A DNA stretch of 32,000 nt from NCBI GenBank assembly GCA_016432445.1, contig CP066689.1, positions 870,001-902,000 of the forward strand, given 5' to 3'. Position 1 is the stretch's first letter, and each line of letters starts with the position of its first letter. The DNA comes from Candidatus Saccharimonadota bacterium (lineage in GTDB: Bacteria; Patescibacteriota; Microgenomatia; UBA1406; GWC2-37-13). A program made the translations under genes and the position numbers. Positions 9,441-27,961 of the stretch are shown here, one piece after another. A model generated the notes under the pieces. It was not told the origin of the DNA and did not search any database. It was given only the letters and a program-made list of their open reading frames with translations.

Positions 9441-9455
9441 TTGAACTAATCCTGT
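9441..9455 (-). repeat. Degenerate copy (12/15) of the tRNA-Gly 5' segment
   Basis: The minus strand reads acaGGATTAGTTcAA, against tRNA-Gly GCGGGATTAGTTTAA. It lies about 105 nt downstream of the truncated GIY-YIG ORF in the same orientation. Confidence 0.3.
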
Positions 9456-9560
9456 TTGATTACTTATCTCATTTTAATGATCTTATGGAAATGTATTAAG
9501 CTTGGGAAATTATAAAAAAAGGACAATTACTAAAAGATATCGCAAAGAAAGCAAGGAGTA

Positions 9561-9734
9561 CTACTTAAGTTTTTCGAAATATTCTTCCTTAAAAAGTAAT
9601 TTGAATGGTGCTCGATATTTAGTTGATTTTGACCTACCTGAGTTATGTTGTTCAAATCGTCTTTCAAAATTATCAGTATAACCCACATAGGTTTTTTTGT
9701 CCTTCAGACTTTGGAGGACATAAACGATAAACAT
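9561..9734 (-). pseudogene. GIY-YIG nuclease minigene, C-terminally truncated (57 codons, below the ORF-track cutoff)
   Basis: Translates to MFIVYVLQSLKDKKTYVGYTDNFERRFEQHNSGRSKSTKYRAPFKLLFKEEYFEKLK*. The VYVLQSLKDK stretch matches the 19279 copy. It stops before the conserved C-terminal helix region. Confidence 0.6.
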
Positions 9735-9743
9735 ATATTGTAA

Positions 9744-9782
9744 GGAGCGGGCCGCCCGCCCTTTGGGCGAGGCGAGCCTCGC
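9744..9782 (-). other. GC-rich hairpin pair preceding the truncated GIY-YIG ORF
   Basis: Minus strand: GCGAGG-ctcg-CCTCGC, then GGGCGGG-cgg-CCCGCTC. Sharply GC-rich in an AT-rich background. Confidence 0.45.
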
Positions 9783-9806
9783 TCTTTTTTGTGAAACAAA
9801 AAAGAG
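9782..9806 (-). other. Perfect 11-bp A/T hairpin abutting the tRNA-Gly 3' end
   Basis: CTCTTTTTTGT-ttc-ACAAAAAAGAG. No U-tract follows it, so it is not a canonical terminator. Confidence 0.3.
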
Positions 9807-9875
9807 CGGGATAGGGGAATCGGACCCCTGCCGAAAGATTGGAAATCTTCCGTTCTACCATTAAACTAATCCCGC
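9805..9875 (-). tRNA. tRNA-Gly (anticodon UCC)
   Basis: Manual cloverleaf: acceptor GCGGGAT/ATCCCGC, D stem GTTT/GAAC, anticodon stem GAAGA/TCTTT with loop TTTCCAA, T arm AGGGG-TCCGATT-CCCCT, discriminator T. No encoded CCA. Confidence 0.9.
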
Positions 9876-10129
9876 AGACTGTTCACTAATCTTCTTTTTA
9901 AATAACCTCTCCCAAAACCTGTTTTTAATTGTTTCTCTCTTATCAGTGCATCTGTTTTATTTAAACAGGCTTCGTAATAGACTAAATTAATTTCCGAAAA
10001 CTTTTTAGTTGTTTTAACTTCTTTATTAAGATGTTCTTTATATCTGTTTTTTAAATCTTTACATGAACCTATATAAAATTCATTATTTATCTGTTCATAC
10101 TTACAAAGCAAAACGTACACATAAAACAT
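9866..10129 (-). CDS. Single-domain GIY-YIG nuclease (87 aa)
   Basis: MFYVYVL...FYIGSCKDLKNRYKEH...YYE...REKQLK matches the GIY-(10-11)-YIG, R and E motifs. The last codons CTG CGG GAT TAG are nt -1 to +10 of tRNA-Gly. Confidence 0.8.
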   Translation of the reverse strand: MFYVYVLLCKYEQINNEFYIGSCKDLKNRYKEHLNKEVKTTKKFSEINLVYYEACLNKTDALIREKQLKTGFGRGYLKRRLVNSLRD

Positions 10130-10143
10130 AAACTCATGTTACT

Positions 10144-10170
10144 CCTTACTTTATATTCTGGCAAGTAAGG
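10144..10170 (-). promoter_or_regulatory. 8-bp hairpin CCTTACTT/AAGTAAGG overlapping the AAGGAG ribosome-binding site of the GIY-YIG ORF
   Basis: The minus strand reads CCTTACTTgccagaatataAAGTAAGGAG. The 3' arm contains most of the SD sequence. Confidence 0.3.
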
Positions 10171-10178
10171 AAACGTTC

Positions 10179-10239
10179 TTCGCCGAAAGCTAAAGCATTC
10201 TGGCGGACCCGCCTTAATGAGCGCAGCACTTTAGGCGGA
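10179..10239 (-). other. 61-nt GC-rich twin-hairpin leader (core GCGGGTCCGC)
   Basis: Sequence TCCGCCTAAAG...TTAAGGCGGG then TCCGCCAGAATG...TTTCGGCGAA. Organisation parallels 19207-19264. Confidence 0.5.
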
Positions 10240-10259
10240 TACCATTAAACTAATCCCGC
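10240..10259 (-). repeat. Exact 20-nt duplicate of tRNA-Gly nt 1-20 (GCGGGATTAGTTTAATGGTA)
   Basis: Identical to 9856-9875. The match ends in the D-loop region. Confidence 0.9.
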
Positions 10260-10271
10260 ATGCGGTATTAA

Positions 10272-10280
10272 ATTATATCA
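10272..10280 (-). promoter_or_regulatory. Extended -10 box TGATATAAT upstream of the tRNA-Gly 5' fragment
   Basis: The minus strand reads tttTGATATAATttaataccgcatGCGGG. It lies 12 nt before the fragment. Confidence 0.45.
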
Positions 10281-10295
10281 AAAAACTTGAGGATT

Positions 10296-11039
10296 TTAAG
10301 TTTTTTTTAAAAAAAGTTCTTGGCTTTTAATCAGATCTGAAGGGCTATTAACCCCAATCCCAACTTCCTCAAACGGTACTTTAAAACCGATTACTCTCCG
10401 ACCATCAGTAACTGCCATCTTTATTAAACTGTTAAGGTAATATTCTCCAGTTACTGGAGATTTTTTAATTCTGCCGACAAAATCCTTTAAAAATTGGTAG
10501 TTAAAACAATATAAGGCGGCATTAAGTTCAGTTATCTTCCTCTGATCAACCGTCGCATCTTTTTGTTCAACACTGTCGATTATTTCATAGTTATTATTTC
10601 TAATAATCCTTCCCCAAGCTAACTCATCAGGTTTTGCGTGCTCGGTAGTTATCATTGTTACCGCAGGATGATTATCTTTATGCATTTCAATCAAGTTCTC
10701 AATCGTCTTTTTTGAATAAAACATCATATGGTCGCCATGCCCAACTAAAACACTCTCAGGAGAATAAGAAAATAATGCTTCAATTCCAACCTTAACCGCA
10801 TTTCCTGTACCAACTCTTTCTTCCTGACAAGCATAAATGACATCATAACCTTTTAAACTATCCTCAATACTTTGATAAAAAGCTCCCACAACTACAACTA
10901 TTGGGTAGGAGATATCTTTAAAAAGCTCCACTCCATAAATGATCATGGGTTTACCCATAAATGGAGTAACCACTTTATTTTTTTCTTTTGATTCCATCCT
11001 TTTGCCAAGTCCCGCGGCAAGAATAATTGAAGCAATCAT
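10296..11039 (-). CDS. Sugar-phosphate nucleotidyltransferase, GlmU N-terminal (uridyltransferase) domain-like
   Basis: ILAAGLGKRM (G-rich NTP loop), GKPMI, GTGNAV and VGHGDHMMF parallel GlmU blocks. The ATG at 11039 (MIASII..) is preferred over the TTG at 11054, which overlaps galE. Confidence 0.65.
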   Translation of the reverse strand: MIASIILAAGLGKRMESKEKNKVVTPFMGKPMIIYGVELFKDISYPIVVVVGAFYQSIEDSLKGYDVIYACQEERVGTGNAVKVGIEALFSYSPESVLVGHGDHMMFYSKKTIENLIEMHKDNHPAVTMITTEHAKPDELAWGRIIRNNNYEIIDSVEQKDATVDQRKITELNAALYCFNYQFLKDFVGRIKKSPVTGEYYLNSLIKMAVTDGRRVIGFKVPFEEVGIGVNSPSDLIKSQELFLKKT

Positions 11040-18463: not shown

Positions 18464-19126
18464 TTATACCATTCTAGACCGTTTTTCTCTAAGCCAGTGG
18501 GCTATGGTGTTACCGAAGATAAATCCACCAATATGAGCAAACCAAGCAATTCCGCCTAATGAGAAAGTTTCCCTGGATAGTGAGCCAATAGTACTAAATA
18601 TCTGAGCAATAAACCAGTACCCTAAAACAAACCAAGCCGGAAGATCAACGATGGTCAAAAAAACGAGAATAACAATTAATGTTTTTACTTTTGAGTATCT
18701 GAATAATATGAAATAGGCTCCAGCCACAGCTGATATAGCACCAGATGCGCCAATCATAGGTATAGGACTAGTAGTGGCAGCAGCATACTGGCTTAAAGCG
18801 GCAATAAGACCGCCTCCTAGATAAAAAAGAATATAACGGAAATGGCCAAGCTTATCCTCAATATTATCTCCAAAAACGTGAAGAAAGATCATGTTGGAAA
18901 TAATGTGAAGAAATCCTCCGTGAATGAACAAAGAGGTAAAGATTGTAAAGTAAGACTCAACAACGGTCAGGTTAAAATTACCAGGTATAAAGGCAAAACT
19001 CCTTATAAAATCTTCAGGATCAGGTAAAAGCAGTTCATAAATAAATATAACGATATTTAACAAAATAAGCAGATAATTTATTACCGGAAAATGCTTCCGG
19101 GGTGTTGAGTCAAATAATGGGAACAT
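18464..19126 (-). CDS. Rhomboid-family intramembrane serine protease
   Basis: GASGAISAVAGAY (GxSG catalytic Ser), HIGGFIFG (catalytic His helix), and HxxxN-like FIHGGFLHIISNM. Confidence 0.85.
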   Translation of the reverse strand: MFPLFDSTPRKHFPVINYLLILLNIVIFIYELLLPDPEDFIRSFAFIPGNFNLTVVESYFTIFTSLFIHGGFLHIISNMIFLHVFGDNIEDKLGHFRYILFYLGGGLIAALSQYAAATTSPIPMIGASGAISAVAGAYFILFRYSKVKTLIVILVFLTIVDLPAWFVLGYWFIAQIFSTIGSLSRETFSLGGIAWFAHIGGFIFGNTIAHWLREKRSRMV

Positions 19127-19137
19127 AGCTATTTATA

Positions 19138-19146
19138 TGATAGAAT
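19138..19146 (+). promoter_or_regulatory. Extended -10-like box TGATAGAAT upstream of the tRNA-Ser 5' fragment
   Basis: Same TGATAnAAT pattern as at 1233, 6677, 10272 and 28029. It lies 43 nt before the fragment. Confidence 0.3.
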
Positions 19147-19189
19147 TAGGTTGTAAGAACAGTGTAAGAAAAGGCTAAAGATTTCATCA

Positions 19190-19206
19190 GGAGGGGTCGC
19201 ATAGTG
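19190..19206 (+). repeat. Exact 17-nt duplicate of tRNA-Ser nt 1-17 (GGAGGGGTCGCATAGTG)
   Basis: Identical to 19539-19555. The match ends inside the D-loop. Confidence 0.9.
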
Positions 19207-19264
19207 CCCGCTCAGAAGCAAGCTTTGAGCGGGTCCGCTCACGAACATAAGTGAGCTGAGCGGA
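19207..19264 (+). other. 58-nt GC-rich twin-hairpin leader (core GCGGGTCCGC)
   Basis: CCCGCTCA-gaagcaagctt-TGAGCGGG then TCCGCTCA-cgaacataagtgagc-TGAGCGGA. Each stem is 8 bp. Confidence 0.55.
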
Positions 19265-19278
19265 GACAAATAACAAAT

Positions 19279-19539
19279 ATGTTCTATGTATACGTATTAC
19301 AAAGTTTGAAAGATAAAAGATTCTATATAGGTTTTAGTGCGGATTTAAAAAAAAGAGTTAAAGATCATAACGAAGGTAGAGTTGTAAGCACAAAGAATAG
19401 AAGGCCATTAGATTTAATCTATTATGAAGCTTATAAGTTTGAACAACAGGCACGTAAACAGGAATTATTTTATAAAACAGGACAAGGAAGACGAGTCTTG
19501 AAAACACGTCTTACAGGTAATGAAATACTAGGAAAATAG
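19279..19539 (+). CDS. Single-domain GIY-YIG nuclease (86 aa)
   Basis: MFYVYVLQSLKDKRFYIGFSADLKKRVKDHN...YYEAY...Q..RKQE matches the GIY-YIG motifs. The final G of the TAG stop codon is nt 1 of tRNA-Ser. Confidence 0.8.
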   Translation: MFYVYVLQSLKDKRFYIGFSADLKKRVKDHNEGRVVSTKNRRPLDLIYYEAYKFEQQARKQELFYKTGQGRRVLKTRLTGNEILGK

Positions 19540-19625
19540 GAGGGGTCGCATAGTGGACTAGTGCGTACGCCTGGAAAGCGTATGTGGTCGCAAGACTACC
19601 GCGGGTTCGAATCCCGCCCTCTCCG
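19539..19625 (+). tRNA. tRNA-Ser (anticodon GGA), class II
   Basis: Manual fold: acceptor GGAGGGG/CCTCTCC (one G-U pair), anticodon stem TACGC/GCGTA with loop CTGGAAA, variable arm GTGGTC-gcaa-GACTAC, T arm GCGGG-TTCGAAT-CCCGC, discriminator G. Confidence 0.9.
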
Positions 19626-19632
19626 CACTTTT

Positions 19633-20949
19633 ATGACTCAAAAAGATGCTTTGGAACTATTAAAACTCGGATATTCCGTATACCTTACTGGAGAAGCGGG
19701 ATCTGGAAAAACATATCTTTTAAATAAATACATAAAATCACTTCATAAACAAAAAGTCGAAGTTGGTATCACGGCATCAACTGGTATCGCCGCCACCCAT
19801 TTAGGAGGAACAACTATTGATTCCTGGTCTGGTTTAGGAATGCGTGATGAAATAACTCATTCCGATCTTATCTATATTAGCCAAAACCACAATCTGCAAA
19901 AAAGAATTAAAAAGACTAAAATCCTTATTATTGATGAAGTATCAATGCTTCATGGTAAAAGACTTGATAGCATTAATAAAATCTGCCAAGCAATACGCAA
20001 AAACAATTCACCTTTCGGAGGAATGCAGGTTGTTTTATCAGGAGATTTTTTTCAATTGCCTCCTGTATCTGAGGAGAGACGGAATTATGATTACGTTTAT
20101 AAATCCAATGTCTGGCATCAAATGAATCCAAAAATTATTTATCTGGAAAGTCAATACAGACAAACAGACCCAGTTTTTAATGATGTCTTATCGGCACTAA
20201 GAGAAAATAGAATAGAGGAGAGGATAAAAAATATTCTCCATCAAACCATTAATAATACCTTTTCCGGTTCAATTGTCCCAACCAAACTTTACACTCATAA
20301 TGTTGACGTTGATCAAATAAATAAAAATCATCTCGATCAGATTAACCAAAAGCCATACGAATATGTAATGACTGCAGTTGGTCACGAAAAACTGGTCGAG
20401 TTCTTAAAGCGTGGATGCTTAGTACCAGAACATCTTACTCTTAAAAAAGGCGCCCAGGTAATGTTTGTCCGTAATAACTATAAAGCTGGCTACTTTAATG
20501 GAACTGTTGGAAAAGTTGTTGGTTTTGACCGGGATAAAACTCCCGTAGTTGAAACTTATGAGAAGAAAAAAATCCATGTCAAACCTGATAGCTGGAATAT
20601 TATGGAAAACAATAAAATTCTGGCAGAGATTAAACAGATTCCGCTTCGGTTGGCCTGGGCAATAACTATCCATAAAAGTCAGGGGATGACCCTTTCTTGC
20701 GCCGAGATTGATCTTTCAAAGTCTTTTGTCCATGGTATGGGCTATGTAGCTTTGTCACGCTTAAGACACCTCAAAGGTCTTCGGCTTTTAGGAATGAATG
20801 ATCTTGCTCTTTCCGTTAACCCTGAAGTTACAGAAGTTGACAAAATACTTCGCCAAAAATCTATTCAAGCCGTTGAAGATTTGAAAAAAATGGGCTGGTT
20901 TAAACGCTTCTTCGCCAGACGAAAATTTATGTATCATCTTACTTCTTAA
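19633..20949 (+). CDS. Pif1/RecD-like SF1 DNA helicase (AAA_30-type)
   Basis: Walker A GEAGSGKTYLL, Walker B ILIIDEVSML, VVLSGDFFQLPPV, and C-terminal AITIHKSQGMT. The start was moved to the ATG at 19633 because the track's N-terminus is tRNA-Ser read as protein. Confidence 0.8.
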   Translation: MTQKDALELLKLGYSVYLTGEAGSGKTYLLNKYIKSLHKQKVEVGITASTGIAATHLGGTTIDSWSGLGMRDEITHSDLIYISQNHNLQKRIKKTKILIIDEVSMLHGKRLDSINKICQAIRKNNSPFGGMQVVLSGDFFQLPPVSEERRNYDYVYKSNVWHQMNPKIIYLESQYRQTDPVFNDVLSALRENRIEERIKNILHQTINNTFSGSIVPTKLYTHNVDVDQINKNHLDQINQKPYEYVMTAVGHEKLVEFLKRGCLVPEHLTLKKGAQVMFVRNNYKAGYFNGTVGKVVGFDRDKTPVVETYEKKKIHVKPDSWNIMENNKILAEIKQIPLRLAWAITIHKSQGMTLSCAEIDLSKSFVHGMGYVALSRLRHLKGLRLLGMNDLALSVNPEVTEVDKILRQKSIQAVEDLKKMGWFKRFFARRKFMYHLTS

Positions 20950-21027: not shown

Positions 21028-21282
21028 ATGCAAACATCTCAAGTTCAATTAAAGATCAGTCTTTCAGAACAATTAAATGATTTATTAAAAGGGAAAGCTC
21101 AACGCCTGGGCGTACCTGTTACTCAATTGGTAAAGCATATTATTATCAAAGAAGTCGAAAATGAAAGATTTCCTACTTTTATAGTTTCTTCTAAGACTGA
21201 AAAAAAAGCAGAGAAAGCACTAAGGGAAATTGACCAATCCGAAATTGTAGATAATGTGGAAGATTATTTTAATAATCTTTGA
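21028..21282 (+). CDS. Antitoxin, ribbon-helix-helix (CopG/RHH)-like
   Basis: 84 aa. The N-terminal beta-strand plus two-helix pattern (VQLKISLSEQLNDLLKGKAQRLGVPVTQLVKHIIIKEV) suggests RHH. Its stop codon lies 2 nt before the toxin ATG. Confidence 0.6.
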   Translation: MQTSQVQLKISLSEQLNDLLKGKAQRLGVPVTQLVKHIIIKEVENERFPTFIVSSKTEKKAEKALREIDQSEIVDNVEDYFNNL

Positions 21283-21284
21283 GT

Positions 21285-21557
21285 ATGAACATTCGTCTAT
21301 CAAAAGAAGTCATTGACTATTTAAAGATACAAAAGAAAAAAAATGCAAAACTTTTTAAAAGAATAGAAAAGCAGTTATCCCTTTTTAAAACTAACCCCAA
21401 ACACCAATCCCTTCGAGTTCATAAATTAACTGGCAAAATTAAAAATATGTGGAGTATATCTATAATTAAAGATATCCGTATGGTATATATCCTTCTTGAG
21501 AACGATTGTCCATATTTTGTTGATATAGGAACTCATGATCAAGTTTATAGAAAATAA
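21285..21557 (+). CDS. RelE/ParE-superfamily toxin
   Basis: 90 aa from the ATG at 21285. ...SLRVHKLTGKIKNMWSISIIKDIRMVYIL....VDIGTHDQVY is the typical RelE/StbE-like pattern. Confidence 0.65.
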   Translation: MNIRLSKEVIDYLKIQKKKNAKLFKRIEKQLSLFKTNPKHQSLRVHKLTGKIKNMWSISIIKDIRMVYILLENDCPYFVDIGTHDQVYRK

Positions 21558-21728
21558 CTCTATTAACTTGGCAACAAAAATTTCCCTATCACCTCCTGAA
21601 AAGGATAAAAAGTTTGATACAAAGCATCAGAACAGCATTTCCAATCCTTCGACTCCGCTCAGGGCGAGCCCGGGAGGTTGAAAAGTTTGAAAAGTTGAAA
21701 TCATTTTGCTTCACTTTCTAAACAAAGT

Positions 21729-27307: not shown

Positions 27308-27961
27308 ATGAATAAAAATACCATTATATACACAATAATTGGGGTTATCCTTATTATTGGTTTTTTATTTCTTGCTTATAATCTTACCAGTACACCTGAA
27401 AAAAATGTTGTTTATAAAGAAACCCAAACTTTAACATCCTCAGACCATATCAAGTGGTCACCTGACAAAAAAAATCTCTTGGTCGAGTATAGTGACCTCC
27501 AATGTCCAGCTTGTAAAGCTTATCATGATGTCATTAAAAGCCAGATAGAAACAGCCTCTTCAGGAGCTGAGATAACAAAAAAAATCACTTTTGTTTACCG
27601 ACATTTTCCTTTAAGTCAGCATCAATACGCCCAGCCTGCAGCTTATGCGGCTGAAGCCGCTGGCAAACAAGGTAAGTTTTACGAGATGATTGATCTCATA
27701 TTTGAAGCTCAGGATAGTTGGTCAAAAAGCAGTAACCCCAATGAAGAGTTTGTAAAAATGGCTCAAAAATTAAATCTTGACATGGATAAGTTCAAAAAAG
27801 ATTTTGATTCCCAAGAAGTAAAAAACAAAGTTAACCAAGACTACCAGTCAGGAATCCAAGCTCAAGTCAGATCTACCCCCAGCTTTTACCTTAACGGCCA
27901 AAAGCTTGATAAGGTAAGCTCTTTCGACGATTTCATCAAACTTCTAAAAGAAGTAAAGTAA
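27308..27961 (+). CDS. DsbA/BdbD-like thiol:disulfide oxidoreductase with N-terminal membrane anchor
   Basis: CPAC active site (CxxC), thioredoxin-fold spacing, cis-Pro region STPSFYLNG. Confidence 0.8.
   Translation: MNKNTIIYTIIGVILIIGFLFLAYNLTSTPEKNVVYKETQTLTSSDHIKWSPDKKNLLVEYSDLQCPACKAYHDVIKSQIETASSGAEITKKITFVYRHFPLSQHQYAQPAAYAAEAAGKQGKFYEMIDLIFEAQDSWSKSSNPNEEFVKMAQKLNLDMDKFKKDFDSQEVKNKVNQDYQSGIQAQVRSTPSFYLNGQKLDKVSSFDDFIKLLKEVK

Follow-up and report, generated by a model that had tools for sequence, protein, structure and literature searches.

SegB of T4/T6-type phages is a free-standing GIY-YIG homing endonuclease that resides among tRNA genes, cuts tRNA gene sequences, is statistically associated with tRNAs of many isotypes, and drives segmental duplication via microhomology that its own gene, at the 3′ end, shares with the 5′ region of a tRNA gene (PMC2330249, PMC13096335). 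In bacteria of the candidate phyla radiation (CPR), insertions that encode GIY-YIG proteins, and that are neither group I nor group II introns, have been described at the tops or bases of stem-loops in rRNA genes (PMC11270868). The subject of the present analysis is a 32,000-nucleotide (nt) stretch of a Candidatus Saccharimonadota bacterium (contig CP066689.1, positions 870,001 to 902,000; hereafter the window), and specifically the pairs of adjacent GC-rich hairpins (twin hairpins) that it carries near open reading frames (ORFs) for small GIY-YIG proteins at two loci, A and B, together with a related structure at a third locus, copy C. A twin hairpin is a separate and portable unit of GC-rich palindromic DNA, with one to three stem-loops that are often nested, and it is very probably a palindromic insertion in a dead tRNA fragment that borders a cassette composed of a GIY-YIG gene and a tRNA gene. 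The resident tRNA gene appears, from the arrangement of its pieces, to have been split or replaced by a cassette bringing its own working tRNA, the leftovers being a dead 5′ and sometimes a dead 3′ fragment. The cassette combines known kinds of element, namely a selfish cassette of the homing-endonuclease type and miniature palindromic elements, and its mechanism is unproven.

Several other described systems share parts of this arrangement. The double-hairpin elements of Allomyces mitochondria and the GC clusters of yeast mitochondria are short, GC-rich and mobile, and occur in intergenic DNA and in the variable regions of structural RNA genes; the mitochondrial double-hairpin elements also stand beside a mobile endonuclease insert that duplicates part of its host gene. 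The bacterial twins resemble them in form alone, being two adjacent GC-rich hairpins within tRNA fragments of an AT-rich genome (the whole 32-kb window has 33% GC), and whereas the mitochondrial elements are dispersed in many copies, the bacterial copies found all adjoin tRNA fragments. Repetitive extragenic palindromic (REP) sequences and bacterial interspersed mosaic elements (BIMEs) with their RAYT enzymes, as well as the ends of IS200/IS605 elements, are imperfect palindromes recognised as folded single-stranded DNA by HUH (Y1) transposases, with no target-site duplication. The cassette has in common with them the paired units and an enzyme gene flanked by its own hairpins, but its enzyme is GIY-YIG rather than HUH, its target is a position in a tRNA loop, and its hairpins are not dispersed within the 32 kb. 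Homing endonuclease genes of fungal mitochondria can carry a replacement copy of the gene end that they displace, the original piece being left as a pseudogene, and there, as here, an essential gene is disrupted and a functional replacement is brought along; in the fungal case the host is protein-coding and its 3′ end alone is replaced, whereas in the window cassette a whole tRNA gene would travel with the nuclease gene. The CPR rRNA insertions involve the same host group and likewise place a GIY-YIG ORF in a structural RNA gene, but the host gene here is a tRNA and not an rRNA, and PMC11270868 describes no duplicated gene copy and no hairpin module. In behaviour, SegB is the closest of the known systems: in the window cassette, too, the ORF runs at its 3′ end into the start of the tRNA and has partial copies of the tRNA on its flanks. 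Unlike SegB, which belongs to phages and has a DNA-binding part, the cassette proteins of about 86 amino acids (aa) consist of the catalytic domain alone and are encoded on chromosomes in several bacterial phyla, and neither a hairpin module nor a split resident tRNA is mentioned for SegB (PMC2330249, PMC13096335).

The twin of locus A occupies positions 10239-10179 on the minus strand, with its arms laid out as TCCGCCTAAAG..TTAAGGCGGG and then TCCGCCAGAATG..TTTCGGCGAA. Hairpin 1 (10208-10239, TCCGCCTAAAGTGCTGCGCTCATTAAGGCGGG) runs TCCGCC TAAAG ... ATTAA GGCGGG, and hairpin 2 (10179-10207, TCCGCCAGAATGCTTTAGCTTTCGGCGAA) is closed by the arms TCCGCCAGAAT and CTTTCGGCGAA. At locus B, on the plus strand, hairpin 1 (19207-19233, CCCGCTCAGAAGCAAGCTTTGAGCGGG) has the arms CCCGCTCA and TGAGCGGG, and hairpin 2 (19234-19264, TCCGCTCACGAACATAAGTGAGCTGAGCGGA) consists of TCCGCTCA, an inner stem, a bulged C and TGAGCGGA. 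A sequence-only reading of the window had described both twins at these places and with these sequences, joined at an identical 10-mer, and all of this was confirmed: the 10-mer, GCGGGTCCGC, has exactly two matches in the window, both at the junctions between the paired hairpins, where 0.09 would be expected (two matches were reached in 0 of 100 shuffles), and it is also found at the equivalent junction in other genomes. Folding supports the locus B twin strongly (z = -4.9, with 0 of 200 shuffles as good), while at locus A the energy alone is weak (z = -1.4; 19 of 200 shuffles) and the two-hairpin structure draws its support from homologues. The third copy (9784-9745) had been taken for a further pair; though rich in GC and strongly folded (z = -5.6), it forms one long nested hairpin and no twin. 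That these blocks are the most GC-rich non-tRNA sequences in the window is only roughly true, as locus A stays below 65% GC in every 40-nt span and the stretches 893-933, 21635-21685 and 27625-27668 reach that value. Perfect GC-rich hairpins with a stem of at least 6 base pairs (bp) are found in the window at the three GIY-YIG loci and at two small intragenic sites (12940 and 26083), and apart from these two the hairpins are confined to the three loci, so that a REP-like scatter is not seen within the 32 kb.

What defines the twins is the sequence on either side of them. At locus A, a dead 5′ fragment of tRNA-Gly(tcc) (psi5′; 10240-10259, minus strand) reproduces nt 1-20 of the intact gene exactly (20/20 identity to 9875-9856) and stops past GGTA, in the D loop; the two hairpins follow, and the tRNA-Gly sequence then resumes with GAACG, nt 21-25, at 10174-10178. 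ORF A (9866-10129, minus strand), which encodes 87 aa with the GIY-YIG catalytic domain alone (PF01541, E = 1.2e-12), comes next, and its stop codon TAG is nt 8-10 of the intact tRNA-Gly(tcc) (9804-9875, minus strand; 67.3 bits with the Rfam tRNA model). Locus B repeats this order on the plus strand: a dead 5′ fragment of tRNA-Ser(gga) at 19190-19206 (exact nt 1-17, 17/17 identity) ends in the D loop after AGTG, the sequence resumes past the hairpins with GAC, nt 18-20, at 19265-19267, and ORF B (19279-19539; 86 aa; PF01541, E = 7.8e-14) terminates in a TAG whose final base is nt 1 of the intact tRNA-Ser(gga) (19539-19626; Rfam tRNA match). The resumption at locus B amounts to 3 nt only; it is longer in relatives, namely 8 nt in L178, 8 nt in L218 and 13 nt in L216 (L-numbers such as L001 or L178 label the related loci compared with window loci A, B and C). 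A close parallel to locus A is L299, where GGTA, a twin hairpin and GAATAGC..TTCC follow one another; in locus A itself, TTTCC of the anticodon region possibly continues the tRNA-Gly remnant after a 5-nt deletion. Neither the tRNA sequence resuming past the hairpins nor the ORF stops overlapping the intact tRNA had figured in the sequence-only reading, which had treated the twins as a leader. Because the tRNA sequence resumes after the hairpins, the twins are best understood as insertions in a dead tRNA fragment, not as a free-standing leader.

The same layout recurs far beyond the window. In a scan of one genome per species for relatives of ORF B (80 loci), a same-strand tRNA starts between -14 and +18 nt from the ORF stop at 16 loci, with a duplicated 5′ fragment in most of them, the identities being Ser-gga, Ser-tga, Ser-gct, Cys, Pro, Val-cac, Val-gac, Tyr, Asn, Leu and Gln; at seven further loci a tRNA ends no more than about 110 nt upstream of the ORF, again with partial tRNA duplicates in most. 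Protein look-ups added Ser-cga, Gly-gcc, Arg-tct and Thr, and the cassette layout has been seen in more than 25 independent loci with at least ten tRNA identities. GC-rich hairpins, counted per 100 nt in 42 low-GC loci, number 28 upstream of the ORF, 12 downstream and 0-4 in other bins; their concentration near the ORF is restricted to tRNA-linked loci, and none were found at about 40 related GIY-YIG genes lacking an adjacent tRNA. The full pattern consists of a dead 5′ fragment, hairpins, the ORF, the intact tRNA, in some cases a terminator-like hairpin, hairpins again and a dead 3′ fragment. Specifically, a hairpin-bordered dead 3′ tRNA fragment, broken in the T loop, lies downstream of the intact tRNA in L003, L178/L220, L007 and L075. 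At the right border of L003 a CGGGAGG..CCTCCCG hairpin precedes CGCCCGGC..GCCGGGCG and then AATCCCTCTCTCTCCGC; L178 and L220 have the hairpin CCCCTCGAAGCTTCAGCGAAGTGGGG in common beside the dead 3′ fragment; and in L141 and L099, too, hairpins adjoin a dead 3′ fragment whose break lies in the T loop.

Protein clades follow both the identity of the tRNA and the type of hairpin. The ORF B clade has 11 members, all of which stand at tRNA-Ser and 10 of which have stems of the YCCGCNC type (one member, L002, shows a dead tRNA-Ser fragment alone because its contig ends), and relatives of ORF A are found at Gly-tcc, Gly-gcc and Arg-tct. The dead fragments of L001 and L013 are not identical to the intact tRNA, and in all cases except the tandem array L003 the identity between fragment and intact tRNA ends within a few nt of tRNA nt 1. 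The mismatches in L001 and L013, the end of identity near nt 1 and the tracking of tRNA by clade fit a cassette-borne tRNA. Besides L003, L069 (1170-2200), from Bacteroidales, is a tandem array, in which tRNA-Pro copies alternate with GIY-YIG ORFs; the D arm and T loop of these copies are replaced by GCCCCGC..GCGGGGC hairpins, and ARAGORN still calls one copy a tRNA. A transposon-like variant is found in L009, L053 and L080 (ORF at 1501 or 199), where the ORF is bracketed by terminal inverted repeats of 13-18 bp and by a direct duplication, 6-10 bp long, of nucleotides from the tRNA 5′ end, and where the right-hand repeat rebuilds tRNA nt 1-4 at its end; at the window loci no inverted repeat matches the ORF 3′ end. 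A literature search found no published description of the arrangement of tRNA fragment, hairpin, minimal GIY-YIG gene and tRNA. In viral contigs, a pattern-based search gave no close relative of ORF B, and 0 of 71 DNA-pattern matches were a twin hairpin.

The positions at which the hairpins sit are precise. After the hairpin block the tRNA resumes exactly at nt 20/21 in window locus A, at 17/18 in L178 (GTTGATCG), at 35/36 in L218 (GAGAGCGT), at 13/14 in L040 (AGTGGTCAAT), at 21/22 in L061 (GAGCGGCA) and, likewise without loss, at 14/15 in L222 and 12/13 in L074; elsewhere the hairpin replaces 4-12 nt of the tRNA (nt 31-34 in L216, nt 12-20 in L007, nt 26-37 in L062 and L071). The blocks are always located at positions coding for the D, anticodon or T loop, or are nested in the loops of other hairpins. 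A DNA-pattern scan of metagenomes with the junction palindrome GAGCGGRTCCGCTCA, in which chance matches in high-GC contigs dominate, returned at least three genuine twins among the 125 matches listed (L178, L141 and L099). The L178 twin is in the leader position of an ORF, and that of L141, at the start of its contig, interrupts the T loop of a 3′ fragment of tRNA-Ser. L099 holds two homologous twins, which share the hairpin 1 loop TCTTCG and the hairpin 2 3′ end ATGTAGCGGA: one is antisense, in the T loop of a tRNA-Thr 3′ fragment that adjoins an intact tRNA-Thr, with the nearest GIY-YIG gene 6 kb away, and the other is sense, in the T loop of a tRNA-Gly 3′ fragment, with no ORF nearby. Copies without an adjacent GIY-YIG gene, for which a check had been proposed, thus exist.

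Modularity and turnover are visible at several loci. L299 has a twin of the locus A type, with the GCGGGTCCGC junction, between ORF and intact tRNA, and a second twin before the ORF. Nested units are found in L206 (TCCGCTCAGATTTTTGAGCGGA enclosed by TCCGCTCA and CTGAGCGGA), in hairpin 2 of L001, and in window copy C when compared with L028, whose hairpin lacks the inner unit. L302 and L304, which encode a protein identical to that of L301 and L303, have an extra block of about 115 nt located about 120 nt upstream of the ORF (at 701), composed of tRNA-Arg nt 1-34 and a twin hairpin and lying between GGATAA direct repeats; it is a recent microhomology-bounded gain or loss. Between L219/L221 and L220, which have the same protein, the hairpin and tRNA-fragment content after the tRNA-Ser (ending at about 1062 and 767, respectively) is entirely different up to the next conserved block, and in L221 a second GIY-YIG ORF starts past this variable region. 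The tRNA in question (973-1062; 679-767 in L220) is called tRNA-Ser with anticodon ACT by ARAGORN, and A34 is unusual in bacterial tRNA-Ser.

The stems themselves are conserved as structures. Nine distinct Ser-type twins were aligned after hand trimming to the outer stems of 8 bp; pairing holds in 96.5% of cells, and six of the 16 pairs have changed on both sides and none on one side only, a result matched by 0 of 500 shuffles. Five A-type twins, folded jointly with RNAalifold, give a two-hairpin consensus with compensatory changes in six of 22 pairs, and their internal motifs (TAAAG / CATTAT in hairpin 1, AAAAT / TTTTG in hairpin 2) are conserved; a hairpin 1 homologous to that of locus A, with TAAAG / CATTAT, is present in L299, L300 and L302. 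C·A mismatches on the sense strand (L004, L178, hairpin 2 of window locus A, column 34/65 of the A-type alignment) are as common as G·T, and the stems, in which pairing is almost strictly Watson-Crick, give no sign, in these alignments, of the wobble tolerance that would be seen in the RNA sense. With stems that covary and further copies in other genomes, the view of a conserved and structured element is borne out.

Small stand-alone GIY-YIG proteins of the UPF0213/YhbQ type are very common in bacteria and, to our knowledge, have no assigned function. ORFs A, B and C all encode GIY-YIG catalytic domains (PF01541; E between 1e-12 and 8e-14 for A and B). In A and B the domain spans residues 1-74 of 86-87, relatives have 80-97 aa, and ORF A has 721 relatives at E <= 1e-8. 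Unlike Seg proteins or I-TevI, these proteins have no linker leading to a separate domain for sequence-specific DNA binding, and matches to a group I intron endonuclease model and to phage homing endonuclease families are weak and below cutoff. No TnpA or TnpB of the IS200/IS605 type lies between the hairpins, the sole ORF per unit being the 86-87-aa GIY-YIG domain. The nearest solved structures to ORF B are the UPF0213 proteins 1zg2 (E = 1.7e-5) and 1ywl (E = 5.3e-5), which match residues 2-67 (BH0048, EF2693), and a homologue of SLX1, 7wme, matches weakly (E = 0.23). The cassette proteins are thus similar to the UPF0213/YhbQ/YazA family in size and in having a single domain, as well as in their best structure matches. 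This family has been grouped with the structure-selective nuclease SLX1, a cutter of branched and stem-loop DNA (PMC7017083), and it is an activity of this kind on branched and stem-loop DNA that we infer for the cassette nuclease. No reported activity or target, and no link to tRNA genes or hairpins, was found in the literature for bacterial UPF0213-type proteins.

The reading that we favour, at a probability of roughly 0.45, is that the hairpins are DNA-level structured modules of a nuclease/tRNA cassette that invades tRNA genes, and that they are linked to its nuclease. The hairpins are probably the substrate of this domain-only, SLX1/UPF0213-like protein, and of the roles offered in the sequence-only reading, that of a target structure for the nuclease agrees best with the data. 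They would act as DNA, either as extruded cruciforms or as single-stranded stem-loops at heavily transcribed tRNA genes. Because the 86-aa nuclease has no DNA-binding domain, it would have to find its target by DNA shape, that is, by the cloverleaves of tRNA genes and by GC hairpins; tRNA genes would be natural structured targets because they are heavily transcribed and form cloverleaves when single-stranded. The nuclease would cut in or beside loops, and repair from a donor would insert the cassette of ORF and tRNA, copy hairpin units into tRNA loops and hairpin loops, and duplicate a unit beside itself to give a twin. Loop cutting followed by such copying repair would explain both nesting and twins with near-identical arms. 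In the window, the old tRNA promoter may transcribe fragment, hairpins, ORF and tRNA as one unit: directly upstream of the dead tRNA-Gly fragment of locus A is a promoter-like site (10272-10299, minus strand; TTAAAA, a 16-nt spacer and a TG-extended TATAAT) which, by a consensus match alone, agrees with the consensus at 10 of 12 positions and has TG before the -10 box, and which is presumably the original tRNA promoter. In the window, and by up to 14 nt in many related loci, the ORF stop lies within or over the mature 5′ end of the intact tRNA, so that if RNase P cut a transcript of both, the mRNA left over would have no stop codon.

A number of points weigh against this reading. The Ser-type stems were aligned after trimming by hand, and arms copied from each other in repair would covary without selection. 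The A-type motifs are asymmetric and sense-oriented in all five copies, and an RNA element would look alike. The only signs of homing, in which an allele lacking the gene is cut and receives a copy, are indirect: clade-specific tRNA targets, the tandem arrays L003 and L069, and population indels. Comparison with relatives close to the window genome revealed no empty site, the orthologues of the PIF1 helicase encoded beside locus B (70-73% identical) having no conserved gene order around them; for this reason the insertion boundaries are not fixed by comparison, and mobility is inferred from the architecture and from two population polymorphisms. The metagenome scan is the sole unbiased sample, with at least three genuine copies among the matches listed. 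The link between enzyme and hairpins is, on the sequences at hand, one of co-occurrence only. Nor does anything found explain the sparing of the intact tRNA, whose loops are those of the dead copies.

An RNA-level alternative would have the hairpins act in the transcript from the old tRNA promoter, as a 5′ stabiliser, as a processing signal related to RNase III or RNase P that parts the dead tRNA fragment from mRNA and tRNA, or as a translational regulator of the nuclease. Position in the window favours it: both twins have a promoter-like site or tRNA fragment on one side and the ORF on the other. The stems covary, the locus B twin folds at z = -4.9, and since the ORF stops overlap the tRNA, RNA processing must matter for expression. 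The A-type motifs fit as well, being asymmetric, maintained, and sense-oriented in five of five copies. Outside the window the proposal loses ground, and with it the original claim of a conserved leader before each GIY-YIG ORF, which is not supported: the approximately 40 related genes without a tRNA have no hairpins, whereas the hairpin families are also placed between ORF and tRNA (L299), downstream of intact tRNAs (L003, L141, L099), and, in L099, without an ORF and once antisense. The hairpins accompany tRNA fragments, not the ORF start. Modules also lie past intact tRNAs and terminator-like hairpins (L178, L003, L099), the Ser-type stems have no G·U intermediates, the hairpins match no Rfam family even with the threshold relaxed to E <= 1 (the gathering score is reached in the window by three tRNAs only), and precise insertion at tRNA loops and inside hairpins is left unexplained. 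A role in RNA processing, stability or translation is thus weakened by the ORF-less, antisense, downstream and loop-insertion contexts, even though the orientation of the A-type motifs agrees with it, and we regard it as unlikely.

It is likewise improbable, to about the same degree, that the hairpins are independent selfish palindromes, that is, miniature GC-rich mobile elements, comparable to mitochondrial double-hairpin elements, GC clusters or REP-type miniature transposable elements (MITEs), that are moved by some other factor, pile up in neutral dead tRNA fragments and are unrelated to the GIY-YIG gene. The ORF-less copies in either orientation, the nesting and tandem arrangement of units, the recurrence of stems like TCCGCC..GGCGGA in distant clades and phyla (window locus A, L040, L062/L071, L099) and the very small amount of non-coding DNA in the host genomes would all suit such elements; yet the hairpins are confined to three GIY-YIG loci within the 32-kb window, cluster at the junction of ORF and tRNA in the 42 low-GC loci, and belong to families that follow the GIY-YIG clade, and these loci (as distinct from the genomes as a whole) contain no other candidate enzyme. 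Here the earlier proposal of a tie to GIY-YIG and tRNA loci is sustained, both by the position of the window hairpins and by the concentration at the ORF/tRNA junction. The least probable of the three is that the hairpins are passive scars or protective disruptors, i.e. filler from break repair that is perhaps retained because it breaks up the dead fragment, which would take away the target of the nuclease in that copy (immunity) or reduce recombination with the intact tRNA (which would delete the ORF). Small target deletions are common and target-site duplications lacking, hairpins lie near the broken ends of dead fragments, and a microhomology-bounded indel was observed, all as repair filler might leave them; but stems and internal motifs are conserved across loci although the proteins are 60-78% identical and the insertion positions differ, as would not be seen in random filler, and splitting a repeat of 20-40 nt would hardly block recombination and would leave the intact tRNA unprotected.

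Some further structures were considered and rejected. A tRNA-like structure made of fragment and hairpins would lack the acceptor strand on its 3′ side; fragments that have no anticodon arm and are followed by an intact tRNA suit neither split-tRNA halves nor a tRNA intron; and a group I or other tRNA intron is at odds with interrupted copies that are truncated (25 nt at A, possibly about 30 with TTTCC, and 20 nt at B) and that match no intron model. A simple tandem duplication of the ORF with the 5′ part of the tRNA was rejected on the end of fragment/tRNA identity near nt 1 outside L003. Palindromes of the P-nucleotide type, derived from the flanks, were rejected for the twins, the arms of which are not the inverse of flanking tRNA; junction palindromes that do hold inverted tRNA-end sequence are found in L009, L053, L080, L028 and window copy C.

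In copy C, this palindrome (9780-9808, minus strand) joins the last nucleotides of tRNA-Gly to their inverted copy (CGCTCTTTTTTG, loop TTTCA, CAAAAAAGAGCG), and L028 has a palindrome built in the same way. The long nested GC hairpin follows at 9744-9784 (minus strand; z as given above), with the inner unit TCGCCCAAAGGGCG between GAGCGAGGCTCGCC and GGCGGCCCGCTC, and it ends in CCCGCTCC, a weak candidate for an 8-nt dead 3′ tRNA-Gly fragment. The truncated ORF C (9561-9734, minus strand; 57 aa) clusters with L028 and L052, a clade located downstream of tRNA-Gly(tcc). A search for intrinsic terminators (a stem-loop with a T run) found no such site in 18950-19750, and in 9450-10400 found sites only on the opposite (plus) strand, at 9765-9784; the twins are followed by GAACG at A and GAC at B, with no T runs. 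The plus-strand site is the GC hairpin of copy C with TTTTTT, which scores as an intrinsic terminator when read in that direction, and no plus-strand gene ends nearby. At 21641-21680, ATTTCCAATCCTTCG shares 14 of 15 positions with the anticodon arm of the window's tRNA-Gly(tcc). The GC-rich TCCGCTCAGGGCGAGCC comes next, and within it is the 8-mer TCCGCTCA known from hairpin 2 of locus B; this site may be a fourth, ORF-less remnant of tRNA fragment and hairpin. Two small overlapping ORFs (84 and 92 aa) with a layout like that of toxin-antitoxin pairs are located at 21028-21557, in the long gap after the PIF1 helicase gene, and a search for defence systems with PADLOC gave marginal, unrelated matches alone. 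Among the more distant relatives, a verrucomicrobial clade (L019, L026, L029, L032, L043, L045, L050, L056 and others) has no adjacent tRNA and a recurrent hairpin with a (G)CCGCGT stem upstream, and in L026 the ORF lies between 97-nt direct repeats; these hairpins may represent a different target of a like element.

For annotation, such cassettes bear on the calling of tRNA fragments, of over-long ORFs that run through hairpins, and of ORF stops inside tRNAs. A more far-reaching proposal, which we consider doubtful at present, is a new, structure-targeted form of DNA mobility, in which a domain-only GIY-YIG nuclease would recognise folded single-stranded DNA, namely the cloverleaves of tRNA genes and its own GC hairpins, cut loops, and move both palindromes and the cassette of nuclease and replacement tRNA into tRNA genes. 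If true, it would be the GIY-YIG counterpart of the HUH-based REP/RAYT and IS200/IS605 systems, and a homing element that compensates for its damage by a spare gene and not by splicing; the compact pair of nuclease and hairpin might then also be of use as a tool. If the cassette is confirmed, a selfish nuclease gene would be seen to invade an essential gene together with a spare copy, with no intron or intein needed. Some clades of this orphan GIY-YIG family are tied to tRNA genes, fused onto them and placed within the remains of an earlier copy of that tRNA, and the family thereby gains concrete biochemical targets in tRNA-gene DNA and in defined hairpins.

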